A stretch of DNA of 32,000 nt from Candidatus Lokiarchaeum ossiferum (lineage in GTDB: Archaea; Asgardarchaeota; Lokiarchaeia; Sigyniarchaeales; Promethearchaeaceae): the NCBI GenBank assembly GCA_025839675.1, contig CP104013.1, forward strand, positions 900,001 through 932,000. Reading direction: 5' to 3'. Position numbers and translations under genes: made by a program. Each line of letters begins with the position of its first letter. Position 1 is the stretch's first letter. Below are positions 1,018-25,230 of the stretch, piece after piece. Under the pieces are notes generated by a model. It did not search any database and was not told the DNA's origin. It saw only the letters and a list, made by a program, of their open reading frames with translations.

Positions 1018-2979
1018 TTACAGATTTTGAATTTCCAAAATTTGTTTTTCGATTTTTTGTTTTAGTAATTCTAATCTTCCAACCTTCTGTTCATAATCTT
1101 CATCTGAAAGATCTCCAGTAATGTTTTCCATCTCAAGATCTAACATTTTGTTGTTTACATTCGCTAATTTAATTTTTAATTCAGTTACCATTTGTACAGA
1201 AGATTTAGTTTCCGTTGAAATTGACTCAGCTTTAACCGGAGGTGAAACATCGTGTTTATTAGAACTTTGGTCGAGATGTGGAATCGGGGGCGGAATAACA
1301 GCAGAAACAGATGCATTTGAAGAAGATGGTTCGTTTATGGGAGATAATATACTCGGACTTATACCCAAAGTAGCTTTTGAAAGCGGATTTTCTGGAGATT
1401 TGGGGGTTTCTTTTTTTGCTTGTAATTTGTTTAATAACATCCCCAATTGGTCCAGTTGTTGAGGGGGCTGAGATGCACCATCAGGAAGAACGGTTGATTT
1501 TGGTGCTGGAGGAACTTGTACAGAAGGCTTCGGAGGCACCTGAACGGGTGGTGCGGGAGGGACTTGCACGGAAGATGCTGGAGGAACTTGTACAGATGGC
1601 TTCGGAGGCACCTGAACGGGTGCTGCGGGAGGAACCTGCACGGAAGGTGCTGGAGGAACTTGTACAGATGGCTTCGGAGGCACCTGAACGGGTGCTGCGG
1701 GAGGAACCTGCACGGAAGGTGCTGGAGGAACTTGTACAGAAGGTTTCGGAGGCACCTGAACGGGTGCTGCGGGAGGAACCTGCACGGAAGGTGCTGGAGG
1801 AACTTGTACAGAAGGTTTCGGAGGCACCTGAACGGGTGCTGCGGGAGGAACCTGCACGGAAGGTGCTGGAGGAACTTGTACAGATGGCTTCGGAGCGTTT
1901 TGAATTGGTGTAGATGAAGAATCTTGGCTTGCAGGTGCCATTTGCTTTAGTATGGAGCGTATTTTCTGAGATTTTTCATTAAAATCTTGACTTACTCGAT
2001 CGTCCCCTAATTCCAAGCTCAAATCAGCAAGCGTTTCAAATAATTTTACAGCAGCAAGAAAGTCTCCCCCTTCAAGAGCTTGTTCAGCTTCTTTTAATTT
2101 TCTATCGCGCTCTAATAGAGGTTTTAATAATGGTGAAACTTCCCCAGACATTTCTAAAATGTCAGCAATAATTGTAATCATTTTATCGCGATTATCCGGA
2201 TCTGTAGCAATCATAGAATAAGCTTTGATATTCAAGTGTCTTTCAATATCTGCAATGGGAAGTGCATCTGGCAAATCTTGTTTGTTTCCAATTGCAGCTG
2301 CATGAGCATAAGGAGCTTCTTTTTTAATTAATTCAACAAAATATTTACTCTTTTCACAATTTTCCAGTGAAGAATCAGTGATCAATAACACTGCATCGGA
2401 ACCTTTAATGAAATTATTCCACAAGAAACTAAATTGTTCCTGTCCTGCAAAATCCCATAAATGGAAATGCAGTTTTCCAATTTTTATTGTTCCAATATCT
2501 CCTGTAATCGTAGGTACATGTTCAACAGGAATATCTTCAGCAGTGATCAAACGAGTGATGGTAGTTTTCCCAACTCCTGAAAAACCCACTAAAGAAATTT
2601 TCGGCCGAAGATTCTTATGAATTAATTCAATTGTGGGATCAAAAATCTCAAAAGTATCTTCATCGAGTTTTTCATCCATAATTGATCCAAACATATCCAT
2701 AAATTCTTTTCTGCACCGGGATAATTCTTTTTTCACGTTTGCAAATTTATCAGATAAATCAGAAACGAAGAAGAAAATTACGTTTTGTTCTGGAACGGAT
2801 AAATAATTAATACGATATTTAAAGAAATCATGAAATTGAGTGTTTTCGGTTGCAATCTTAAAAGCTTCAGAAGATATTTGTTTATAGGCTTGATTGAATC
2901 CCTCATCATCTAACCCTTTTCCAAAATCTCGTTTGTAAATAATTTCACTATCTTTTGTTATGTAAACTTGTCGTAGCAT
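1018..2979 (-). CDS. multidomain Ras-superfamily small GTPase: N-terminal longin/roadblock-like domain + G domain + helical region + 16 Pro-rich octads + C-terminal coiled coil
   Basis: ATG at 2979 with GTGAGG about 14 nt upstream. G1 GFSGVGKT, switch-I Thr in PTITGD, G3 WDFAGQE, G4 GNKQD (Rab/Ras-like). About 125 aa of alternating beta/alpha pattern precede the P-loop. Then (VQVPPxxx)x16 and a heptad-rich tail ending ...KQILEIQNL. No C-terminal Cys for prenylation. Confidence 0.85.
   Translation of the reverse strand: MLRQVYITKDSEIIYKRDFGKGLDDEGFNQAYKQISSEAFKIATENTQFHDFFKYRINYLSVPEQNVIFFFVSDLSDKFANVKKELSRCRKEFMDMFGSIMDEKLDEDTFEIFDPTIELIHKNLRPKISLVGFSGVGKTTITRLITAEDIPVEHVPTITGDIGTIKIGKLHFHLWDFAGQEQFSFLWNNFIKGSDAVLLITDSSLENCEKSKYFVELIKKEAPYAHAAAIGNKQDLPDALPIADIERHLNIKAYSMIATDPDNRDKMITIIADILEMSGEVSPLLKPLLERDRKLKEAEQALEGGDFLAAVKLFETLADLSLELGDDRVSQDFNEKSQKIRSILKQMAPASQDSSSTPIQNAPKPSVQVPPAPSVQVPPAAPVQVPPKPSVQVPPAPSVQVPPAAPVQVPPKPSVQVPPAPSVQVPPAAPVQVPPKPSVQVPPAPSVQVPPAAPVQVPPKPSVQVPPASSVQVPPAPPVQVPPKPSVQVPPAPKSTVLPDGASQPPQQLDQLGMLLNKLQAKKETPKSPENPLSKATLGISPSILSPINEPSSSNASVSAVIPPPIPHLDQSSNKHDVSPPVKAESISTETKSSVQMVTELKIKLANVNNKMLDLEMENITGDLSDEDYEQKVGRLELLKQKIEKQILEIQNL
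1502..1895. repeat. 72-bp tandem repeat, about 5.5 copies (24-bp sub-period), inside the GTPase CDS
   Basis: Units start at 1508, 1580, 1652, 1724, 1796 and 1868 (partial). Units 1580 and 1652 are identical, as are 1724 and 1796; the two pairs differ at 2 nt. One unit is 44/72 G+C by hand count, in an AT-rich window. On the minus strand it encodes PKPSVQVPPAPSVQVPPAAPVQVP. Confidence 0.95.
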
Positions 2980-3075: not shown

Positions 3076-3591
3076 TTATTTTTTTGCGAGATTTTTGATT
3101 AAATGTTTGAAAATAGGAAAGCGATCTTCATTGATTTGATCTTGGTTTTCATGGGTTAATTCTAAGAATTCTTCATGCAAATCCAAATTCTCTATTTTAA
3201 ATGATATAGGATTATTTGTAGATCTATCCAATGTGGAACTAATCCGTGTTATACTGGGCATATATTGAGCTAAATCTACATCTTTTGATACATAACTCAT
3301 TAAATAAACGTGCTTTGCGAATGTTATTATGATATTGGCATCTTCCGATTCTAAAACTAAGCTACTAATGCTTTTCACCCCTAGTTCATCACCAACTTTA
3401 TCCCTTTGGAGAATTAGATCCCATAATCGAGGAGAAATTAATTTCCCTTTTTGAAATTTTTGAATTTTTGAAGCTAAAATAATACCGTATTTATTTATAA
3501 TGGCAGTATTGGTCCCTATCATATCAAAAATTTGCTGGACAACACTTTTCCAATTTATTTCTTCCGTTGTAGCCGATGTTTGCTGAGTCAT
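3076..3591 (-). CDS. Roadblock/LC7 (MglB-like) domain protein
   Basis: 171 aa, lying 96 bp upstream of the GTPase on the same strand. The pattern WKSVVQQIFDMIGTNTAIINKYGIILAS ... SLVLESEDANIIITFAKHVYLMSYVS matches the Roadblock alpha-beta-beta-alpha-beta-beta-beta layout by eye. A C-terminal ~50-aa extension follows. Confidence 0.5.
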   Translation of the reverse strand: MTQQTSATTEEINWKSVVQQIFDMIGTNTAIINKYGIILASKIQKFQKGKLISPRLWDLILQRDKVGDELGVKSISSLVLESEDANIIITFAKHVYLMSYVSKDVDLAQYMPSITRISSTLDRSTNNPISFKIENLDLHEEFLELTHENQDQINEDRFPIFKHLIKNLAKK

Positions 3592-3806: not shown

Positions 3807-5165
3807 ATGGGAGATAAAGATTTAGAAAACATTATTTCTTCTATTGGACAAGAAGAAATGGCAGTAGCTCAAAAACAAGCTCAAATAGATCGCCTTAAAC
3901 AGTTAATTATTAAGCAAAAAACAGAGATGGCGGAACAACAGAAATTGATTCAAGAATTGCAAGGACGAATAAATAATATGTATGATTTGCCTGCAGATAT
4001 CGAAGAATTAAAACGAATGGTTGGAGAGATGAGGGCTGAAAATAATCATAAAGATCAACAATTACAAATGGCTTATGGAACTATTGCTGAAAAGGATGCT
4101 GAATTAAAAACAACCAAAGTCCAGATAGAACCATTATCGCGCAATCTTGATACGTACATCGCACAAGTTGGAGAATTAAAAGCGAAATTAATTGAACAAA
4201 ATGGACTTATCAATATGAAGCAAAAAGAAATTGATGAACTCCAAATGGCCAACGAGGCTACAAACCAAAATTTAGAAAAAATGGAAATGGAATTTGCCCA
4301 ACGGGTACAAGCGAGATTGAAACAATTCATGGATACTGAAGATCAGTATCAAAGCCGAATTTCTAAAATGGAAGCAGAATTCGAAGAACGCACCAAGAAA
4401 ATGCAAGAACAATATAGTGTACAAGTTGATAAAGCTCAAGGATCAGTTCAAGACACGTATGAGCAATTAGCATCATTGAAAAGTGATTTAGCTCAAAAAG
4501 ATGTTAAGATCACTATTTTGAGTCGAGAGCTTCAGGAAGCGAATACTTCGATTGTCCAAGAAAAATCAACTAACGAAGCTTTACAGAAAGAAATTAATTC
4601 AATTAAAGATAATCTTCGAGAAAAAGATATCGTATCTGCAGATTTTAAGAGTAAAATCGAAGCGGAATTAAAAAACGAGTTATTTACCGCAAAATCAGAA
4701 TTTACTCGAAAAATTAATGAGCTTGAATCTCAATTATTAGATAAAAATCTTAAAATTCAGGAACTCACCCAAAACAGCCAAAGCGCAGATAAACGTGTGA
4801 TCGAAATCAAAGCCCATTTAGACGAATTAATGGCAAAAAACAATGAAATCTCAACAAAATACCAAGAAATGTTGGAAAAATCTGAAAATCAAGATAAAAC
4901 AAACGCTGATTTAATCGCATTTAAGAAGAAAAATGAAGGAATTGCAAAAAATATGGAAGGATTAATGCAATTATTCGAAGAAGAACCTCTATTCCGGACT
5001 TATTTATTAGTAAGAGATGTTGGTGCAATGGATCCGGGTTTATTAAAGAATGCCTTAGGTGTTCCAAGTATTACGGTGCAAAAATATATTGAGAAGTTTA
5101 TGAAAGTGGATCTTTTTGAAAAGGTGGGTGAAAAGATTACTCTTAAACATAAACTTGCTAATTAG
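3807..5165 (+). CDS. long coiled-coil protein with C-terminal winged-helix (wHTH-like) domain
   Basis: 452 aa. About 380 aa are Gln/Glu/Lys-rich heptad-like sequence with no Pro or Gly breaks. The C-terminus LFRTYLLVRDVGAMDPGLLKNALGVPSITVQKYIEKFMKVDLFEKVGEKITLK reads as H1-H2-H3-wing. It is divergent from the Roadblock gene across a 215-bp AT-rich spacer. Confidence 0.7.
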   Translation: MGDKDLENIISSIGQEEMAVAQKQAQIDRLKQLIIKQKTEMAEQQKLIQELQGRINNMYDLPADIEELKRMVGEMRAENNHKDQQLQMAYGTIAEKDAELKTTKVQIEPLSRNLDTYIAQVGELKAKLIEQNGLINMKQKEIDELQMANEATNQNLEKMEMEFAQRVQARLKQFMDTEDQYQSRISKMEAEFEERTKKMQEQYSVQVDKAQGSVQDTYEQLASLKSDLAQKDVKITILSRELQEANTSIVQEKSTNEALQKEINSIKDNLREKDIVSADFKSKIEAELKNELFTAKSEFTRKINELESQLLDKNLKIQELTQNSQSADKRVIEIKAHLDELMAKNNEISTKYQEMLEKSENQDKTNADLIAFKKKNEGIAKNMEGLMQLFEEEPLFRTYLLVRDVGAMDPGLLKNALGVPSITVQKYIEKFMKVDLFEKVGEKITLKHKLAN

Positions 5166-11421: not shown

Positions 11422-11560
11422 TCCGAGATAGCCAAGCCTGGTCAATTTTGGTGTACTGGTAAATTCCTATATTAGATTATGGGTCAGACCTAAGACTATC
11501 GGCGCTGGACTTAAGATCCAGTTTCATAGGAATACGTGCGTTCGAAGCGCACTCTCGGAA
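11422..11560 (+). tRNA. tRNA-Leu(UAA), class II, with a ~55-nt insertion (putative intron, ~11446-11500) in the D-loop
   Basis: Acceptor TCCGAGA/TCTCGGA plus discriminator A. D-arm GCC-AAGCCTGGTCAA[insert]GGC. Anticodon stem CTGGA/TCCAG with loop CTTAAGA. Variable arm TTTCATAGGAATAC. T-arm GTGCG-TTCGAAG-CGCAC. Confidence 0.7.
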
Positions 11561-11753
11561 CTATCTTTTTCTTCTATTTAATGACGATAAGCGACTTTTG
11601 GGATACATATTCAAATTTCATTTAGTAAGGATGTGTACATTATATTGACATTAATAAATAAACTTGAGAAAGTCGACTGAATCTACCATTAGAAACAAAA
11701 AAATTGGTAAAGTTTAGCAATGAGTTCTTTGCTAAAAAGGGAATGAAAAAAAG

Positions 11754-13154
11754 TTAATTGAGAATAAATTTGCTCAACTTTTCAGATAAAGTTAAAAATA
11801 AACTCCCCGCAACCCTCTCTTCTTTAGCGACTAATTCTTTTCGGGAAGCGGAACATAATTTCAATAATTCAGAAACACCATCCATAAGAGAAAGATCAAT
11901 AAAGGTTTTATGAGGTCGGAGAATCCGATCAGGATTTTGAAGGCTCACCACTATTTTTGGGGCAATTTCATCAATCACAGCATGCAATTGAGCATCTTTT
12001 CGATCGGGTTCAAAACTTTTATCCAGAATAGAATGCATTTTTTGCAAAACATCTTCGAGAAATTGTTTCATGGTATGATTTGGAGGGAAATTAATTTTGT
12101 CTGCCACTCGGCGTTCGGTAAATTTCATGATTTCTTCCCAAATGTGAGTGTATCGCCGCACTTGATTATAAACAACCTTATTGATTTCGGTGGAAACATG
12201 ACCATGAAATTCTTTATCGGGTTTATCCATATAGTCATTAGAAGCTTGCATTATTGCAGTATTATCTAAAAACTCAAGAGTCGTGCGACCAATAGGCCCA
12301 TTTGGATGACATATAGCAGGTAAAATGACAGCCCCTGTTTTTTTATGAAGAGAAATAAAACTTTGAGGAGTGTGAATTAGATAAGGTAGCTTACCATGGA
12401 GACAAGGGGTTCGAAGCTGGGAAGAAGAGGCATAATCATGGTAAACAACAATGGAATGATTATTTTTCAAATCTCGGGTTAAATGGGGAGCAAGGAAGGA
12501 AAAAGATGTGCTCCCATAAATATAGAAATTATCGTACCGTTCTCGATTGTTGTATTCATACATGGGAATATTCTTGATGCTCCCGATAGTTGACACTTTA
12601 TAATGATTAGGATGGCAAACTAATCCGAAATTTGCATGAAAAAATTGACCCACATGCGGGGTAGTAATAATAACCCCTTTTCCTTGAGCAATCGCAGCTT
12701 CAAAACGCTCAAAATGTTTTAAGGATATATTTTTTCTTCCATTCCTGTGAACGATTAAGGGAAAATTGAAGAAAATATCCATCATTAAGGAACCCATATA
12801 TTTGGAACTTGCATCACATAATTTTCGGATTGATTTTTCAGAATAATTTGGATGAAGTGCTCGAAGACCCGCTTTTGTTCTTCTTTTTACTTTTCTTGAA
12901 GTACCTAAGATAAAATGACCAATAAAATGACCTATGCTATTAAAAAAGTGCAAGGGAGTATAGAGAAACATGCGATAGATCCCTTTCGTGATGTAAAATC
13001 TTAAAAATGAATAAGCAGGACCAAGTGAATCGCCCCAACTTTGTCCCTCTTTTTTGTCCCTTATCCCTTTTACTTTTTCCTTTTTAGTTTTAGCCTTAAA
13101 TTCAGTGCGAGTATGATTAATTTGTTTCGGGATGAAAATTTTTACTCCAACCAT
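11754..13154 (-). CDS. LpxL/HtrB/MsbB-family (lipid A biosynthesis-type, PF03279-like) acyltransferase homolog with N-terminal TM and ~110-aa C-terminal extension
   Basis: Compared by eye with my recollection of E. coli LpxL. RRTKAGLRALHPNYSE resembles RRAKIVHRNLELCFPEMSE. GKGVIITTPHVGQFF resembles KRGILLVGIHFLTLE. VVYHDYASSSQLRTPCLHGK...TGAVILPAICHP resembles WYAPDHDYGPRSSVFVPLF...SGACLVPFVP. The His is conserved but the +5 acidic residue is Phe. Confidence 0.55.
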   Translation of the reverse strand: MVGVKIFIPKQINHTRTEFKAKTKKEKVKGIRDKKEGQSWGDSLGPAYSFLRFYITKGIYRMFLYTPLHFFNSIGHFIGHFILGTSRKVKRRTKAGLRALHPNYSEKSIRKLCDASSKYMGSLMMDIFFNFPLIVHRNGRKNISLKHFERFEAAIAQGKGVIITTPHVGQFFHANFGLVCHPNHYKVSTIGSIKNIPMYEYNNRERYDNFYIYGSTSFSFLAPHLTRDLKNNHSIVVYHDYASSSQLRTPCLHGKLPYLIHTPQSFISLHKKTGAVILPAICHPNGPIGRTTLEFLDNTAIMQASNDYMDKPDKEFHGHVSTEINKVVYNQVRRYTHIWEEIMKFTERRVADKINFPPNHTMKQFLEDVLQKMHSILDKSFEPDRKDAQLHAVIDEIAPKIVVSLQNPDRILRPHKTFIDLSLMDGVSELLKLCSASRKELVAKEERVAGSLFLTLSEKLSKFILN

Positions 13155-17994: not shown

Positions 17995-20154
17995 ATGTTT
18001 GTTAATGTATGGTCTTTATGGCTTGTGTTACTTTCTGCTATCGTTTCACTTGTAGTAGCATTTCTTTTAAAAAAGAAAGTTAGCACAGCTGATCCAGGTA
18101 ATGAAGAAATGGTTAAGGTTCAAGGGTATATTCGAGATGGTGCTAACGCTTTTGTAAGGCGTCAGTATAAAACCTTAGCAATTTTCGTTGGTGGATTAGC
18201 GATTGTAGTCGGAATTATATACTATATTTATCCTATCGAAACTGAAGGTACAAATGTTAAGTGGTGGGTAATGGTATTATCGTTCATTGTAGGATCCTCT
18301 GCTTCAGCTTGGGCTGGGTGGTTAGGAATGAAAGTTGGTGTTGATGCTAATGCCAAAACTGCTCAAGCAGCGACCAAAGGATTAACTCCCGCCTTCGATG
18401 TTTCCTTCTTTGGAGGGGCAGTTATGGGTCTTATTGTCACTTCTGCTGCATTAGGTGGAGTTTGGTTACTTTATTATATTATTGGAGAACCGATAGTAAT
18501 TTTAGGATTTTCCTTCGGAGCTTCAACCATTGCACTTTTTGCTAAAGCCGGTGGTGGTATCTTTACCAAAACCGCCGATGTTGCCGCCGATTTAGTCGGT
18601 AAAATCGAATATTCCTTACCGGAAGATGATCCCCGCAATCCTGCCGCCGTGGCAGATAATGTTGGGGACAACGTTGGAGATATCGCCGGAATGGGTGCAG
18701 ATCTCTTTGATTCATATGTGGCTTCCATAATTGGAGCGATGTTGTTAGGTTATAGCGTATCTTATACAGGTCTTTTTGATTTAGCTAACGCAGATATTTT
18801 AGCATCTTTTCCTTTAGTTATTAGCGCAGCAGGACTATTTGCATCCATCGTAGGCATTTATGTAATCTCTAAAATGAAGAAAACTAGCCCTGGAAAGGCA
18901 CTTAATAGTGGCACATATCTTGCAGCAGCATTATTCATAGGCATTGGAGCATTATTTACTTTCCTCCTTACCACATCTAGCGGAATCGATACAAGTGGAA
19001 GTGGACGATTTGAAAATATGTCAGATAAATTATGGTTAAATTATGGAGCCGCAGCTTTTGGAGTTATCGCAGGAATTATTATTGGATTAACCACCGACTA
19101 TTATACCGATGATTCCAAACATCCTACCCAAGCCGTAGCCGAATCTTCCCAACAAGGCCATGCCTTGAATATCTTAACCGGATTTTCCTATGGGTTAATG
19201 AGTGTCGCACCTCCAACACTTGGAATTGTGGTCGTAATGGGAATTTCATATGCATTAGATGGAGTTATTGGTGTTGCTAGCGCATCCACAGGTATGCTTG
19301 CAATTGTAGGAACGATCGTTGCAAATGATGCTTATGGTCCTATTGTAGACAATGCCCGTGGTATTGCCGAACAAGGTGGGCTTGAAGAAGATGTTATTGC
19401 CTTGTGTGATAAATTGGATTCCGCGGGAAATACCGCAAAAGCAGTTACCAAAGGATTTTCCATTGGGGCCGCTGCTTTAACCGTATTAGCCTTATTATAT
19501 TCTTTCATGGAAGAGGCAAAACTTCTTTTAGTAGATACTGATTTTGTGACAGGACTCGATGTTCTTTCTGTTGATGTTATGATTGGACTTTTATTAGGAG
19601 TTATGATTCCGTGTATCTATTCGGCCGTTTTAATCTTTGCAGTGGATAAGAATGCCCAAGTTATGGTCAAAGAAATTCGACGCCAATTTGAAGAACATCC
19701 AGGTATTTTGGAAGGTACCGAAGCAGCCGATTTTGAAAAATGTATCGATATTGCAACTGTAGGTTCCCTAAAAGCATTGGTTGTTCCTTCATTATTATCA
19801 GTTGTTGCACCAATTGTTGTAGGAGTTTTATTCGGAGTACGTGCTTTAGGAGCTTTCTTGGCAGGAACTATCCTCATCGGATTCATCTTTGGATTACTCT
19901 TATCCAACGCAGGTGGAACATGGGACAATGCCAAGAAATACATTGAAGATGGTAACTTAGGTGGTAAAGGCACATTGGCTCACGCCGCTGCCGTGACCGG
20001 AGATACTGTCGGAGATCCGTTCAAGGATACCGCCGGACCGGCAATTAATACCTTAATTTGTGTGATGTCCCTTACCGCTAGTATGTTCCTTCGATTATTT
20101 GTGGGTATAAACAGTGGAGAAGGCTTAATTCAATTAGGTACATTAATAGCATAA
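17995..20154 (+). CDS. hppA: membrane-bound proton-translocating pyrophosphatase, K+-independent-type signature (copy 1)
   Basis: 719 aa with multiple TM spans. Hallmarks are GGGIFTKTADVAADLVGKIE, DNVGDNVGDIAGMGADLF and VTGDTVGDPFKDTAGP. GNTAKAVTKG carries the Lys and Thr that mark K+-independent enzymes. Confidence 0.9.
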   Translation: MFVNVWSLWLVLLSAIVSLVVAFLLKKKVSTADPGNEEMVKVQGYIRDGANAFVRRQYKTLAIFVGGLAIVVGIIYYIYPIETEGTNVKWWVMVLSFIVGSSASAWAGWLGMKVGVDANAKTAQAATKGLTPAFDVSFFGGAVMGLIVTSAALGGVWLLYYIIGEPIVILGFSFGASTIALFAKAGGGIFTKTADVAADLVGKIEYSLPEDDPRNPAAVADNVGDNVGDIAGMGADLFDSYVASIIGAMLLGYSVSYTGLFDLANADILASFPLVISAAGLFASIVGIYVISKMKKTSPGKALNSGTYLAAALFIGIGALFTFLLTTSSGIDTSGSGRFENMSDKLWLNYGAAAFGVIAGIIIGLTTDYYTDDSKHPTQAVAESSQQGHALNILTGFSYGLMSVAPPTLGIVVVMGISYALDGVIGVASASTGMLAIVGTIVANDAYGPIVDNARGIAEQGGLEEDVIALCDKLDSAGNTAKAVTKGFSIGAAALTVLALLYSFMEEAKLLLVDTDFVTGLDVLSVDVMIGLLLGVMIPCIYSAVLIFAVDKNAQVMVKEIRRQFEEHPGILEGTEAADFEKCIDIATVGSLKALVVPSLLSVVAPIVVGVLFGVRALGAFLAGTILIGFIFGLLLSNAGGTWDNAKKYIEDGNLGGKGTLAHAAAVTGDTVGDPFKDTAGPAINTLICVMSLTASMFLRLFVGINSGEGLIQLGTLIA
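18535..18713. repeat. 179-bp tract 100% identical to the reverse complement of 24515-24693 (hppA copy 2)
   Basis: Checked base by base. The flanking positions 18534 and 18714 differ between the copies. Confidence 0.9.
19079..19184. repeat. 106-bp tract 100% identical to the reverse complement of 24071-24176
   Basis: Checked base by base. The flanking positions differ between the copies. Confidence 0.9.
19900..20042. repeat. 143-bp tract 100% identical to the reverse complement of 23219-23361
   Basis: Checked base by base. A further ~50 bp upstream differs at only 2 silent sites. Confidence 0.9.
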
Positions 20155-20331: not shown

Positions 20332-22125
20332 TTATTTCCAATGGTGCAAAGAATAATATTTATCAACCATTTGATCAATATCAACTGTAGAATTCTTGGT
20401 CGGGCCTCGAGGTAAAGTTTCCTTAATAAAACGTTCAGGCAGGGTGTCATCCTTACGACTCAATCCAAACTTAGTATTAAGAGTATGTTGCAAATCTACG
20501 GATTTAGTCATAATTTCTTCAAGATGTTGAGGAGTATATTTAATTCCAGTACAAAAATTCAATAATTTTGAAGTAGTCTCAAACGTCAACACATCCATAC
20601 ATAACCCAATATTTTTACACATTGTCAAAGAATCTGTTAAAAGAGCGATTTTTTCAGAATAATAGACCAATGCTGCTTTTCCTTCTTCTGAAAGTCTATG
20701 AGCTGCTTCAATTGTCCCAAATCGTTTCAAAGATTCGTCTTCACGATTGGTTAATTCAAAAAATGGTTCTGCCCGTAAATGATCCCCACCACGTGATGCA
20801 ATAGCATAAGTAAGTCCATAAGCTTTGATACCCCGTGGATCGCCGTTGATGATATCCAACCCTTTTACTTGTAAAACTAATTTTTGCGCTTCTTCTGAAA
20901 ATTGTTTTGAGAATTTGTAAGCTCCCATTGCAAGTTTATCTCCAATTCCTTTCCGAAAAGTGATAAGCTCGATAATATTACGAACGCTATCAATATCTCC
21001 CCAGTCGAGAGTTATATCATCAATGTCACTAGGTAGAATTAATTTCTTTTCTTGACATTCCATAATCCAAGCAATAACTTCAGAAGTGGAAACAGAATCT
21101 AAACCCATTTGATTTAGGTAAGTATTCATTTCTAAAGCAAATGCAAGATTATTATTTCCAATCTTTGAAGTAAAGCTACATAGCGTTTCATATTCTGGAC
21201 CTTCTGCTTCAAATTCATTACACACATAATATCGCGAGCAATGTAAGTTACAATTAAAACAAGCCTTATTTTTTACTTTATATTTCTGTGCTAGTTTTTC
21301 TCCCGATATTTCATCCAGATAATCACAAATCCCATCTTGAAAATGCTTTGTTGGTAAAATTCCTACCCCATTCAAGTCACTCATCAGCATGGTAGTACCC
21401 AGATTATACCTTTTTTGATACTCTCCATGATTTCGAATTAACTTCTTCATTGATTTCACTTCATCATAAAATGCAAGCGAATCAGCATAATCTAAAATAC
21501 CGCTGCCTTTTACTGCAATAGCCTTAATATTTTTTGATCCCATCACAGCACCCATCCCTGTTCGGCCATTCACCCGATTTCCACTAGAAACAATTGTTGA
21601 ATAAAGGACTTGATTTTCTCCAGCAGGTCCAATGGCTGCAACTTGAATTGAATAATCTTTTTGAGATTTTCTAATTGAATAGGTAGTATCCACAATAGTA
21701 TGATGTTTTAATTCAGGGCACTCGATAAATTCAACACCCTTATTAGAAATATTAAGATAAAGAAGAGCAGAACTCTTCCCGGTTATTATGATTTGATCAA
21801 AACCAGTCAATTTCATTTCCGCTCCAAACTGGCCTCCTGCTGCAGAATCACCGAGAATCCCAGTCATCGGAGATTTTGCAGTTACAATTACATAACTTGA
21901 GGATGGAAGAATTGAACCCGTTAAAGGTCCAACTCCAAATATCAATAGATTTTCGGGTGACAAAGGATCACAATCAGGATCTAATTCTTCAAACAAGCGT
22001 TTGGTATTAGCCGCTCTTCCACCAATCACATCTCGAATCCATTTTTTATCAAGTTCTTCAATTTTAAATCTCCGTTCAGTCAAATTAATTCGTAAAATCT
22101 TTCCACCATATCCAAATTTAAGCAT
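20332..22125 (-). CDS. aor: aldehyde:ferredoxin oxidoreductase family (tungstopterin-type)
   Basis: 597 aa. The N-terminus FGYGGKILRINLTERRFKIEEL is typical of AOR. 4Fe-4S ligands CFNCNLHC plus a downstream Cys (CKNIGLCMD), and GGDHLRA. Confidence 0.85.
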   Translation of the reverse strand: MLKFGYGGKILRINLTERRFKIEELDKKWIRDVIGGRAANTKRLFEELDPDCDPLSPENLLIFGVGPLTGSILPSSSYVIVTAKSPMTGILGDSAAGGQFGAEMKLTGFDQIIITGKSSALLYLNISNKGVEFIECPELKHHTIVDTTYSIRKSQKDYSIQVAAIGPAGENQVLYSTIVSSGNRVNGRTGMGAVMGSKNIKAIAVKGSGILDYADSLAFYDEVKSMKKLIRNHGEYQKRYNLGTTMLMSDLNGVGILPTKHFQDGICDYLDEISGEKLAQKYKVKNKACFNCNLHCSRYYVCNEFEAEGPEYETLCSFTSKIGNNNLAFALEMNTYLNQMGLDSVSTSEVIAWIMECQEKKLILPSDIDDITLDWGDIDSVRNIIELITFRKGIGDKLAMGAYKFSKQFSEEAQKLVLQVKGLDIINGDPRGIKAYGLTYAIASRGGDHLRAEPFFELTNREDESLKRFGTIEAAHRLSEEGKAALVYYSEKIALLTDSLTMCKNIGLCMDVLTFETTSKLLNFCTGIKYTPQHLEEIMTKSVDLQHTLNTKFGLSRKDDTLPERFIKETLPRGPTKNSTVDIDQMVDKYYSLHHWK

Positions 22126-22639
22126 GTTTTTCCCCCCATTTCTTTCTTATCTCATTTCCTTTGGTGGCTATATATAGAAAACGTCTTTCAGAAACATTCA
22201 TTCCTTTTGAATTCTCTTTAAAATTTGATAAACTTACCGTTTCGATACAATTTGGTGCAAATTGAATGGCTTGTTCAGTACAAACATCTACACATTGTGG
22301 ATTACCACCACATAAATCACAAACATAATAAATTCTTTCAAAAACTTCTATTGCACCGATAGGACAGCTTTTTTCGCAGGCCCCACATCGAGTGCAAATT
22401 GTTGGACTTATGATAATTTGACCCATTGATCCAACCGTGAGTGCATTGAATGCACAGGATTTGATACAGAATCGTTCTTGGCATTGTTGACATACGATTG
22501 GTCCATCAATCCCAGTGGAATATGAGCTCATAATTTTAATTCGGCTAAGATTTCTGCTGCTTTTTCCTGAGCGTAAAAAAGCACATGTAGTTTCACATTG
22601 TCGGCAACCTGTACATTTACTAAGATCAATTTTTATCAT
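22118..22639 (-). CDS. poly-ferredoxin-like 4Fe-4S protein (four Cys clusters), likely AOR electron-transfer subunit
   Basis: Cys motifs are CTGCRQCETTC, CQQCQERFCIKSC, CTRCGACEKSCP and CDLCGGNPQCVDVC. The stop overlaps the AOR start by 8 nt (ATGCTTAA). Confidence 0.75.
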   Translation of the reverse strand: MIKIDLSKCTGCRQCETTCAFLRSGKSSRNLSRIKIMSSYSTGIDGPIVCQQCQERFCIKSCAFNALTVGSMGQIIISPTICTRCGACEKSCPIGAIEVFERIYYVCDLCGGNPQCVDVCTEQAIQFAPNCIETVSLSNFKENSKGMNVSERRFLYIATKGNEIRKKWGEKHA

Positions 22640-23121: not shown

Positions 23122-25230
23122 TTATAATTGAATTAACCCGGCACCGCCTCCAACAGCAACAAATAATGGTAAGAATATACTTGCTGTTAAAGACATTACA
23201 CAAATTAAGGTATTGATGGCCGGTCCGGCGGTATCCTTGAACGGATCTCCGACAGTATCTCCGGTCACGGCAGCGGCGTGAGCCAATGTGCCTTTACCAC
23301 CTAAGTTACCATCTTCAATGTATTTCTTGGCATTGTCCCATGTTCCACCTGCGTTGGATAAAAGTAATCCAAAGATGAAACCGATGAGGATAGTTCCTGC
23401 CAAGAAAGCTCCTAAGGAACGAATTCCGAAAATAATTCCAACAACAATAGGTGCTCCAACAGATAATAAGGATGGCACAATTAATGCTTTAAGGGAGCCT
23501 TTGGTTGCAATATCGATACATCGTTCAAAATCGGCTGCTTCGGTGCCTTCCAAAATACCAGGATGTTCTTCAAATTGGGTTCGAATCTCTTTGACCATAA
23601 CTTGGGCATTCTTATCCACTGCAAAGATCAAGACTGCGGAGTAGACACATGGAACCATAACTCCAAGGAGTGCTCCAATCATTACATCAACATCTAACAA
23701 ATTCAATTCCATTACAATATCAACGGTAGCTTCTTCAGCTTCGACCATGAAAGAGTAAAGGAGTGCGAGTACTGTAAGTGCAGCAGCGCCAATGGAAAAT
23801 CCTTTGGTAATTGCTTTTGCGGTATTTCCGGCTGAATCTAATTTATCACAGAGGGCGATAACATCTTCTTCCAAGCCACCTTGTTCTGCAATACCTCGAG
23901 CATTGTCCACAATTGGACCATAAGCATCATTAGACACGATTGTTCCAACAATAGCAAGCATTCCAACGGAAGCACTGGCAACTCCCCAAACACCATCTAA
24001 GGTGAAGGAAATAGCCATAGCAACGACAATTCCAAGGGTTGGAGGGGCGACGCTCAATAAACCGTAAGAGAATCCGGTTAAGATATTCAAGGCATGGCCT
24101 TGTTGGGAAGATTCGGCTACGGCTTGGGTAGGATGTTTGGAATCATCGGTATAATAGTCGGTGGTTAATCCAATAACTAATCCAGCAACAACACCAATTG
24201 AAGCAGAACCCCAATTTAGCCATAAACGATTTTTCATTTCATCAGTAATTCCAGGAGTTGTGAAGGTTAATAGGGTAAACATAAGTGCAATTACTATGAA
24301 TAAACCAGTAGCAATCCATGTACCAGAATTAAGCGCTTTTCCAGGACTTTCTTTTTGCATCTTTGAAATTATGATAATTCCAATGATAGAAGCAAATAAT
24401 CCAGCGGCACTAATAATAATTGGATAAGTAGTAAACACTTGAGCATCAACAATTTCCATATTTCGGAAAACGGAGTAAGCTAATAACATAGCGGCAATTA
24501 AAGAAGCAACGTAAGAATCAAAGAGATCTGCACCCATTCCGGCGATATCTCCAACGTTGTCCCCAACATTATCTGCCACGGCGGCAGGATTGCGGGGATC
24601 ATCTTCCGGTAAGGAATATTCGATTTTACCGACTAAATCGGCGGCAACATCGGCGGTTTTGGTAAAGATACCACCACCGGCTTTAGCAAAAAGAGCAATG
24701 GTTGAAGCTCCGAAGGAAAATCCTAAAATAATCAAAGGATCTTCAGCAAAGAAATATAATATGAATACTCCACCTAATGCAGAAGCGGAACAAATTAATC
24801 CCATAACTGCTCCTCCAAAGAAGGAAACATCAAAGGCAGGAGTTAATCCTTTGGTCGCTGCTTGAGCGGTTTTAGCGTTAGCATCGACACCAACTTTCAT
24901 TCCTAACCATCCAGCCCATCCAGAAGCAAAGGAACCCAGGAGATATGAAAGAACCATTAAACTCCAGTGGAAATCAAGTGAACCAGATACACCGTAAAGA
25001 ATACCAAGTGCAATTGCCAACCCTAATACAAATACTGCAAGGGTAGTATATTGGCGCTTGATAAAGGCTCCAGCTCCATCTCGAATATATCCTTGAACCT
25101 TAACCATTTCTTCGTTTCCAGCATCTGCGGTATCCACTTTTTTTTTAAGCAAGAATGCCGCGACAAAAGCGGCAATTGCTGCGACGAGGACCAACCAAAT
25201 GGTCCAGACACCTGTTACTGCAAAGATCAT
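23122..25230 (-). CDS. hppA: membrane-bound proton-translocating pyrophosphatase, K+-independent-type signature (copy 2)
   Basis: 702 aa, roughly four-fifths identical to copy 1 by eye, with the same hallmark motifs. GNTAKAITKG. Convergent with copy 1. Confidence 0.9.
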   Translation of the reverse strand: MIFAVTGVWTIWLVLVAAIAAFVAAFLLKKKVDTADAGNEEMVKVQGYIRDGAGAFIKRQYTTLAVFVLGLAIALGILYGVSGSLDFHWSLMVLSYLLGSFASGWAGWLGMKVGVDANAKTAQAATKGLTPAFDVSFFGGAVMGLICSASALGGVFILYFFAEDPLIILGFSFGASTIALFAKAGGGIFTKTADVAADLVGKIEYSLPEDDPRNPAAVADNVGDNVGDIAGMGADLFDSYVASLIAAMLLAYSVFRNMEIVDAQVFTTYPIIISAAGLFASIIGIIIISKMQKESPGKALNSGTWIATGLFIVIALMFTLLTFTTPGITDEMKNRLWLNWGSASIGVVAGLVIGLTTDYYTDDSKHPTQAVAESSQQGHALNILTGFSYGLLSVAPPTLGIVVAMAISFTLDGVWGVASASVGMLAIVGTIVSNDAYGPIVDNARGIAEQGGLEEDVIALCDKLDSAGNTAKAITKGFSIGAAALTVLALLYSFMVEAEEATVDIVMELNLLDVDVMIGALLGVMVPCVYSAVLIFAVDKNAQVMVKEIRTQFEEHPGILEGTEAADFERCIDIATKGSLKALIVPSLLSVGAPIVVGIIFGIRSLGAFLAGTILIGFIFGLLLSNAGGTWDNAKKYIEDGNLGGKGTLAHAAAVTGDTVGDPFKDTAGPAINTLICVMSLTASIFLPLFVAVGGGAGLIQL

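Follow-up and report, generated by a model that had tools for sequence, protein, structure and literature searches.

An in-frame proline-rich tandem array in the variable linker of an Arf-like GTPase of Candidatus Lokiarchaeum ossiferum

Introduction

A 32,000-nucleotide (nt) stretch of contig CP104013.1 of Candidatus Lokiarchaeum ossiferum (positions 900,001 to 932,000; hereafter, the window) contains, inside a gene for an Arf-like small GTPase, a GC-rich and nearly perfect tandem array that encodes a series of proline-rich octads. The question raised by this locus is why a signalling GTPase should carry such an array, and whether the repeated peptide, the length of the segment, or neither of them is what matters. 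In-frame proline-rich disordered repeats are well known from bacteria, eukaryotes, and archaeal Borg elements, so a repeat of this type is by itself no surprise. The interest of this one is that it points to a conserved Asgard GTPase family composed of a head, a long proline-rich tether, and a conserved C-terminal hairpin. The array is thus an entry point to a conserved module of Asgard archaea in which a Roadblock protein is paired with a tethered Arf-like GTPase.

The reading favoured here, which is considered probable with a fair margin of doubt, is that the array is a species-specific and recently homogenised part of a hypervariable, disordered, proline-rich linker, and that this linker acts as an extended, semi-stiff tether from the GTPase head to the C-terminal module. 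An original prediction made from the sequence alone had described the array, proposed a rigid spacer or a multivalent docking array, and expected its length to be polymorphic; these proposals are taken up below together with the evidence that bears on them.

The array and its reading frame

Tandem Repeats Finder (TRF), applied to the 32-kb window, reported an array at 1502-1895 with a period of 72, 5.5 copies, 96% matches, 0% indels, and a score of 725. The next-best repeat of the window scored only 58, and chance is far exceeded as a source of the array. A repeat search also revealed a 24-nt sub-period beneath the 72-nt period, in agreement with the about 5.5 copies of a 72-bp unit made of three 24-bp sub-units that had originally been described.

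1502..1895, minus strand: tandem array of 5.5 copies of a 72-nt unit with three 24-nt sub-units per unit (TRF, repeat search, octad list, and unit comparison)

In the frame of the minus-strand open reading frame (ORF), the array encodes exactly 16 octads of the form xxxVQVPP (window 1890-1507, amino acids (aa) 364-491), the number that had been predicted, which follow one another in the order KPSVQVPP/APSVQVPP/AAPVQVPP. When the units are numbered in the direction of coding, unit 1 equals unit 4 and unit 2 equals unit 3, and the two types are 2 nt apart, both differences being synonymous (AAG/AAA and CCA/CCT). Unit 5 carries four nucleotide changes, two of them non-synonymous, and the sixth copy is a single octad. 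The earlier description of identical adjacent units at 1580/1652 and at 1724/1796, the two pairs being 2 nt apart, is correct in that phase. Both unit lengths (72 and 24 nt) are divisible by three and no in-frame stop codon occurs, so the array is an in-frame amino-acid tandem repeat.

The array units have a G+C content of 59.7-61.1% (61% had been counted by hand for one unit) vs 34.9% for the whole window. The G+C contents of the first, second, and third codon positions are 0.86, 0.58, and 0.34 in the array vs 0.48, 0.33, and 0.23 in the remainder of the gene; the high G+C of the array is thus due to its Pro, Ala, Val, and Gln codons, which place the excess in codon positions 1 and 2. With a third-position value of 0.34 and the excess confined to positions 1 and 2, a foreign origin of the GC-rich segment was ruled out.

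The encoded peptide is 37% Pro and 24% Val, has no Gly and no acidic residues, and is charged solely through seven Lys residues. Its longest proline run is two; 16 VPP[AK] motifs are present in the array, PPP and PPG are absent from it, and the only PPP of the whole protein lies at aa 563. An amphipathic polyproline-II (PPII) register was considered, as a 24-residue unit corresponds to eight PPII turns; it was dropped because no clean hydrophobic face emerged when it was checked by hand. A protein search with the 131-aa repeat alone returned 0 of 8000 candidates at E<=0.001, a result that is uninformative and most likely caused by the composition correction of HMMER.

Two plus-strand ORFs, 1377..1913 (178 aa) and 1516..1917 (133 aa), also span the array; they are open across it because the repeat unit has no stop codons in those frames.

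Architecture of the host GTPase

The array lies in frame inside an Asgard Arf-like GTPase, as had been proposed. The Pfam family PF00025 (Arf) matches aa 123-253 with 66.4 bits (gathering cut-off 22.3; E 2.8e-18). The parts of the gene and of its product are as follows.

1018..2979, minus strand: 653-aa multidomain Arf-like small GTPase of 71.5 kDa that contains the array (ORF; Pfam Arf 2.8e-18, Roc, Ras)
2680..2979, minus strand: N-terminal domain, aa 1-100, longin-like by its predicted beta-beta-alpha-beta-beta-beta-alpha topology (AlphaFold2, predicted local distance difference test (pLDDT) >90)
2158..2613, minus strand: G domain, aa 123-274 (Pfam; Foldseek; motifs GFSGVGKT (G1), WDFAGQ (G3), and NKQD (G4))
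1939..2124, minus strand: three conserved helices, aa 286-347, at the end of the conserved N module (AlphaFold2; invariant columns)
1222..1938, minus strand: disordered linker rich in Pro, Val, Ser, Ala, and Gln, aa 348-586, 28% Pro (AlphaFold2, composition)
1420..1449, minus strand: short conserved amphipathic helix inside the linker, aa 511-520, LDQLGMLLNKL (AlphaFold2 pLDDT 65; close orthologues)
1021..1221, minus strand: conserved C-terminal helical hairpin, aa 587-653 (AlphaFold2 helices 587-621 and 626-652, pLDDT >90)

The AlphaFold2 model was built from an alignment of 54 orthologue sequences, across which the P-loop (GFSGVGKT), the switch II motif (WDFAGQ), and the specificity motif (NKQD) are invariant; L324, G325, D326, D327, and F333 are invariant columns of the three-helix region. 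When the G domain was compared with the Protein Data Bank (PDB) by Foldseek, the top 50 matches were almost all Arf1, Arl1, Arf6, and Arf2 together with the Asgard GerdArfR1, except for two Rac1 chimeras (E about 1e-8; TM to target 0.6-0.75). The switch regions (aa 146-162) were predicted with low confidence. In the model, where the G domain spans aa 128-274, a beta/alpha domain of 100 residues and a helix (aa 107-123) come before it, and not the amphipathic, myristoylated N-terminal helix of a canonical Arf; the protein is therefore referred to as Arf-like. No signal peptide or transmembrane segment was noticed in the GTPase.

The secondary structure assigned to the modelled N-terminal domain (strands 2-9, 12-18, 47-52, 55-62, and 67-74; helices 25-39 and 79-100; pLDDT >90) is consistent with a longin topology. 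Among 19 orthologue N-termini compared with Pfam, only single members matched Longin (E 0.048) or SRP-alpha_N (E 0.02), and a profile search of the PDB with this domain gave nothing meaningful, i.e., no sequence-level confirmation of a longin identity. The domain is called longin-like on the basis of its predicted topology and of the longin-GTPase fusions that have been described in Candidatus Prometheoarchaeum syntrophicum MK-D1 (PMC10933270).

Across the linker, pLDDT is 34-56 (flanking modules >90), and no secondary structure is predicted except for the helix at aa 511-520; the array segment has a pLDDT of 40-50 and is predicted to be disordered throughout. The array makes up the first 131-residue part of the linker and is followed by about 95 more non-repetitive residues, rich in Pro and Ser, that hold the short helix and lead to the C-terminal helices. 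The location originally given, between the G domain/helical region and a C-terminal coiled coil, is thereby correct and can be refined: about 95 residues intervene, and the coiled coil is a predicted helical hairpin. The proposal of a proline-rich spacer of about 130 residues likewise fits the 131 residues with 37% Pro that are predicted to be unstructured.

The C-terminal module is specific to this family. Of 1.84e9 representatives, 34 matched it, in every case at the very C-terminal end and preceded by a proline-rich stretch, and many of the matching database proteins are fragments that begin inside the linker. Distant clades conserve a different island in the linker, GLNLNPEDFMVKxRPK...VPKDAKNKLKTSPF, in place of LDQLGMLLNKL. 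The LDQLGMLLNKL helix and this island are candidate docking helices or motifs, e.g., for a Roadblock dimer.

Concerted evolution of the array in two L. ossiferum genomes

A second complete Candidatus Lokiarchaeum ossiferum genome, CP163304.1, encodes the same protein (WP_371805038.1, annotated as ADP-ribosylation factor-like protein; a two-member cluster at 90% identity). The two loci are 99.1% identical over 9 kb, and CP163304.1 likewise encodes 653 aa with the same 16 octads. Since the same 16 octads are found in two independent complete genomes, the array is not an assembly artefact, which answers a check that had been called for; the L. ossiferum B35 genome was assembled with Nanopore reads (PMC9834061). 

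Of the 21 nucleotide differences in the gene, 18 fall inside the 394-nt array. The array is 4.6% divergent, vs 0.19% for the remainder of the gene and 0.8% for the sequence beyond it; the comparison of the array with all other aligned sequence gives a Fisher p of 5e-9. Only eight columns of the 72-nt unit are variable, and the same substitution recurs in several units of one genome; the mean distance between units is 1.3-2.8 nt within a genome vs 3.4 nt between orthologous units. The recurring substitutions and the lower distance within than between genomes indicate concerted evolution and are characteristic of units that underwent gene conversion or exchanged unequally after the strains separated, with an unchanged copy number. 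As both genomes (about 0.9% apart) have 16 octads, the expansion predates the strain split. From the earlier alternative of very recent stepwise duplication or concerted evolution, the latter is thus supported by the comparison of units, while a recent duplication is not needed. With two genomes of cultured strains to compare, the locus illustrates concerted evolution cleanly.

Purifying selection keeps both the reading frame and the octad peptide. The 18 differences in the array cause two amino-acid changes in the GTPase frame (16 of the 18 are synonymous) vs 13-18 changes in the other open frames, and the changes are synonymous in six of the eight variable unit columns (p = 0.011). In the three old sub-octads, which are 6-10 nt apart, VQVPP is encoded by three codon sets that differ by six substitutions, all of them synonymous (p = 6e-4).

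Linker variation across the orthologue family

A homologue search gave 674 proteins at E<=1e-5; statements about the family rest on the best 120 of the 674, all <1e-140, whose source names comprise Promethearchaeota/Lokiarchaeia, Thor-, Hermod- and Hodarchaeota, and Harpocratesius. For 112 of these 120, the N module (345 residues) and the C-terminal module could both be aligned and the linker between them measured. It is 27-377 aa long (median 235), with a median of 22% Pro, and a proline-rich linker is kept in 112/112. A disordered in-frame linker of variable length therefore joins the conserved head (N-terminal domain, G domain, and three helices) to the conserved C-terminal hairpin.

Many of these linkers have their own, unrelated tandem units, e.g., PxPPVQQP in MK-D1, PRPSVQAP/PKPSVEAP in orthologue P0002, and elsewhere PPAPSIVA, VTPPPAPKTS, PPGPPKPxA, QQPTI, PEEVAPEx (e.g., PEEVAPET), and the 22-mer APKPAIPKPPAIKKT. 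In the MK-D1 orthologue (P0005), the N module is 76% identical (BLASTP, 58% of the query), the architecture is the same, and PxPPVQQP octads form an array of its own. The comparison of repeat presence and length that had been suggested therefore yielded not a fixed, non-repetitive linker but one of 27-377 aa in which many members have repeats of their own.

Near-identical relatives differ by whole units. Orthologues P0011 and P0014 (loci L002 and L003) have identical N and C modules and contigs that are 99.9-100% identical over 10 kb, and they differ by 96 nt, i.e., four octads; loci L035 and L036, from different samples and 98-99.5% identical, are separated by a single indel of 168 nt (7 x 24). 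Additional near-identical protein pairs also differ by whole units, with collapse of short-read assemblies possible for some. The length polymorphism that had been expected is thus found across the family, including between near-identical relatives, but not between the two L. ossiferum genomes, both of which have 16 octads. The array DNA evolves by unequal recombination or gene conversion between its 24/72-nt units, which keeps the units alike within a genome and leads to gains and losses of whole units across the family.

In orthologue P0021, the predicted protein changes frame inside the octad array (…LCRLFKHHLCRLFKHH…); either the repeat was wrongly assembled or sequenced there, or the allele is truly frameshifted.

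The octad as a possible motif

A P-[SP]-[VI]-Q core with a period of 8-9 occurs far above shuffled expectation in seven of the nearest orthologues, namely, L. ossiferum, P0004, the Promethearchaeum clade, and P0019. The octad arrays have different, young higher-order units (72 nt in L. ossiferum, 72 nt at 86% in MK-D1, and 48 nt at 95% in P0002), and in a rough tree, lineages without the octad core interleave with those that bear it. These patterns hint at a sequence-specific constraint on the octad in one clade, not at a family-wide rule.

Canonical ligand motifs were searched for in the L. ossiferum linker, which contains one class I ([RK]xxPxxP) and no class II (PxxPx[RK]) SH3 consensus, no PPxY, no FPPPP, and no run of at least five prolines of the profilin type (PPPPP). 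Across the 112 linkers, no canonical motif exceeds the number expected from shuffles, except for PxxPx[RK] (191 observed vs 153 expected) and PPPPP (39 observed vs 17 expected, in 16 linkers).

A DNA pattern for two adjacent VQVPP octads was also run against 185,579 species genomes and the JGI metagenomes. It gave 7 matches in the former and 21 in the latter, mostly high-GC chance matches, out-of-frame matches, or unrelated repeats; none of them encodes the GTPase or has an Asgard context, and neither further strains nor other client proteins were recovered. The source genome was itself absent from the matches, presumably through masking. Two adjacent VQVPP octads were found at no other Asgard locus in these collections, so a motif shared with other client proteins is not seen. 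Three of the JGI metagenome contigs (L018, L030, and L016; GC about 0.38) have a different 24-nt tandem array that matches the VQVPP DNA pattern, with a PLV[LSP]VQVP frame and stops nearby, on AT-rich contigs without a GTPase.

An Arf GTPase listed in a Lokiactin co-immunoprecipitation from L. ossiferum was considered as a possible match to the array protein and rejected: it is GNAMCCOK_04696 of 38.1 kDa, not the 71.5-kDa protein, and there is no 71.46-kDa entry among the listed rows of that table (bioRxiv 10.1101/2025.11.30.690169).

Tether, ligand, or by-product

If the favoured tether reading is correct, the 131 residues of the array, with their high content of Pro and Val and their lack of Gly and acidic residues, would form an expanded, PPII-rich, semi-stiff chain. 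By a worm-like-chain estimate, its root-mean-square span would be 6-13 nm and its contour about 41 nm. Such a tether would set the reach of the GTPase head, and of a Roadblock partner acting on that head, from the place where the C-terminal hairpin and the mid-linker helix are anchored, and the composition and approximate length of the linker would matter more than its exact sequence. Several points weigh against this. We infer the spacer role from composition and from analogy with the C-terminal linker of FtsZ and with TonB. The linkers of the family vary about ten-fold in length, and an exact ruler length is therefore not conserved; the copy number is the same in the only two genomes of L. 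ossiferum, and some of the copy-number differences between metagenomic contigs could be short-read assembly collapse. Lastly, the strong, synonymous-only conservation of VQVPP is not needed by a pure spacer, and it hints, together with the recurrence of the P-[SP]-[VI]-Q core in seven of the nearest orthologues, including the Promethearchaeum clade, at a sequence-specific constraint.

A multivalent docking array is an explanation that is less probable than not by a good distance, yet not a negligible one. Here, the octad core P-[SP]-V-Q-V-P-P (octad peptide, KPSVQVPPAPSVQVPPAAPVQVPP) would be a short linear motif for a proline-recognition module. A profilin, a fold of SH3-like or another type, the longin-like domain of the GTPase itself, or its Roadblock partner might be that module, and 16 copies would concentrate it beside the GTPase in the manner of a formin FH1 region. 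Consistent with this, the peptide is conserved while synonymous sites diverge, octads with the core exceed shuffles in seven of the nearest orthologues, whose higher-order units all differ, three profilin-like proteins are encoded by L. ossiferum (PMC9834061), and Roadblock, longin, and profilin have a common core fold (PMC10933270). Docking to profilin, SH3, WW, or EVH1 modules, as originally suggested, is not supported: the array has no proline run >2, the motif counts across the 112 linkers are mostly at or below shuffle, and the PPPPP excess involves none in this protein. The Loki profilins 1 and 2, as well as the profilin of Odin, have moreover been reported to show no polyproline interaction (PMC8410842). 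Most orthologues have very different units (PPGPPKP, PEEVAPET, APKPAIPKPPAIKKT), no second Asgard locus with the paired octads was found in the genome and metagenome collections scanned, and the Lokiactin-associated Arf is another protein. Docking survives only as an unspecified, clade-restricted motif. A narrower version, for which the chances appear slim, is that the octads are a clade-specific multivalent ligand of a profilin-fold module (the own longin-like domain, a Loki profilin, or the dimer of the Roadblock protein). Lokiarchaeum and Promethearchaeum have the core P-[SP]-V-Q-x-P-P in common. If it were true, the GTPase would possess an FH1-like recruiting arm whose valency is tuned by copy number, and this would represent a prokaryotic precursor of the proline-rich adaptor logic that connects small-GTPase signalling to cytoskeleton or membrane remodelling. 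Both cultured Lokiarchaeia carry an octad array, which makes peptide-binding and localisation experiments feasible.

At the other extreme, the array may have no function of its own and be a neutral by-product of slippage or unequal recombination in a tolerant linker, its uniformity reflecting homogenisation only. The extreme lability of linker sequence and length across the family and the demonstrated homogenisation agree with this, but homogenisation cannot explain that VQVPP is kept by synonymous-only changes between sub-octads, nor that 16/18 differences between the genomes are synonymous, and the proline-rich linker is present in 112/112 orthologues; a purely neutral array is thus improbable. 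Consecutive prolines are pause sites that depend on eIF5A/EF-P, and the 16 Pro-Pro dipeptides, each within a VPP[AK] motif, might slow ribosomes in an aIF5A-dependent manner, which would separate the folding of head and tail or couple expression to aIF5A. Such translational pacing is very unlikely: the strongest stallers, PPP and PPG, are absent from the array, proline spacing is very different in the repeat units of orthologues, and nothing ties the family to translational control. The last alternative, that the array is an assembly artefact or that a plus-strand ORF (1377..1913 or 1516..1917) is the real gene, is effectively refuted. Tandem repeats are easily mis-assembled, the array is crossed by two open plus-strand frames, and the repeat of P0021 contains a frameshift, but two independent closed genomes have an array of the same length. 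The plus-strand ORFs were ruled out as genes by the 13-18 amino-acid changes that the 18 differences would cause in them vs two in the GTPase frame, a pattern showing that they are under no selection. On the minus strand, the frame runs without a break into N and C modules conserved in 112 orthologues.

Comparison with known systems

The closest functional analogy of the linker, in our view, is the C-terminal linker of FtsZ with its conserved terminal peptide. Like the array protein, FtsZ combines a GTPase core, a disordered variable linker, and a short conserved C-terminal module for anchoring or partner binding (PMC9586301). In both, linker length and sequence vary widely while the two ends are conserved. 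The array protein differs in having an Arf-like and not a tubulin-like fold and no known polymerisation, and its family has a linker that is much more proline-rich and often consists of near-perfect tandem repeats. Periodic proline units also form extended, PPII-like spacers in TonB, with its (EP)n(KP)n repeats, and in the proline-rich repeats of streptococcal surface proteins, and such envelope spacers are often length-polymorphic between strains through in-frame gain or loss of units. Those spacers are periplasmic or surface-exposed, whereas the array protein is a cytoplasmic signalling GTPase, and the alternating charge of TonB contrasts with an array that is uncharged apart from its Lys residues. 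Formin FH1 regions resemble the array as disordered proline-rich repeats of variable copy number beside a conserved functional module; they have tracks of consecutive prolines, whereas the array never goes beyond PP and is not accompanied by an FH2-like domain.

With regard to its evolution, the array appears closest to the in-frame proline-rich repeats of Borg elements of Methanoperedens (PMC9879509). The amino-acid tandem repeats of Borgs are likewise near-perfect nucleotide repeats within ORFs, with a unit divisible by three, are enriched in proline and disorder-promoting residues, and are disordered, fast-evolving, and lineage-specific (PMC9879509). Unlike them, the array is chromosomal and belongs to a conserved family of cellular genes; every orthologue already has the disordered linker, which was not created de novo by the repeat; and the array has two levels, with old 24-nt sub-units within a young 72-nt unit.

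Neighbouring genes and other features of the window

Two genes flank the GTPase gene on its upstream side.

3076..3591, minus strand: 171-aa Roadblock/LC7 (MglB-like) protein, 96 nt upstream of the GTPase gene (AlphaFold2; Foldseek; PDB profile)
3807..5165, plus strand: 452-aa coiled-coil protein whose C-terminal part is small and globular, divergently oriented (MK-D1 neighbour with 49% identity, E 3e-90)

The 171-aa protein is predicted to adopt a Roadblock/MglB fold with extra C-terminal helices (AlphaFold2 pLDDT 84-90 over aa 11-120). Foldseek matched the model to Roadblock3 of MK-D1 (9jue, E 1.5e-6) and to MglB structures (1j3w, 6hjm, and 3t12), with E 1.5e-6 to 1e-5 for 9jue, 1j3w, and 6hjm. 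Its profile matched PDB Roadblock chains at E 0.0036-0.013, and in Pfam no family, including Robl_LC7, matched above threshold. A Roadblock-like gene adjoins the GTPase gene in MK-D1 and six other loci, with gaps of 6-103 nt; the gap is only 6 nt in a distant clade, where the Roadblock-like protein has 27% identity (E 6e-24). The two genes therefore form a likely operon. GTPases of MK-D1 have been described as fused to longin or Roadblock domains and as generally not located in operons with Roadblock genes (PMC10933270, Tran et al. 2024); with its conserved Roadblock-like gene directly upstream, the pair described here is an exception to this general statement. The proline-rich linker, its repeats, and the C-terminal hairpin are not discussed in that paper, and neither the proline-rich tether nor the operon of Roadblock-like protein and GTPase is discussed in the literature that could be searched.

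For the 452-aa protein, Pfam gave weak matches to coiled-coil families only. Loci L001-L004 and L006 have a divergent gene of 378-452 aa at the corresponding place, homology having been assessed for the MK-D1 gene only. The GTPase family is thus co-located with an MglB/Roadblock-like gene and, in the Lokiarchaeial branch, also with a coiled-coil gene.

Further features of the window lie at a distance from the GTPase locus.

11465-11561, plus strand: tRNA-Ala(GGC) gene of 97 nt, probably intron-containing (ARAGORN)
11754-13154, minus strand: 466-aa ORF matching the bacterial lipid A biosynthesis acyltransferase (LPLAT) family (E 4e-7)
17995-20154, plus strand: H+-translocating pyrophosphatase, full-length paralogue
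20332-22125: aldehyde:ferredoxin oxidoreductase gene, between the pyrophosphatase paralogues
22118-22639: 4Fe-4S ferredoxin gene, between the pyrophosphatase paralogues
23122-25230, minus strand: second full-length paralogue of the H+-translocating pyrophosphatase, in opposite orientation to the first

Rfam returned nothing at its gathering threshold for the tRNA-Ala(GGC) region (11465-11561). The match of the 466-aa ORF to the LPLAT family is unexpected for an archaeon.

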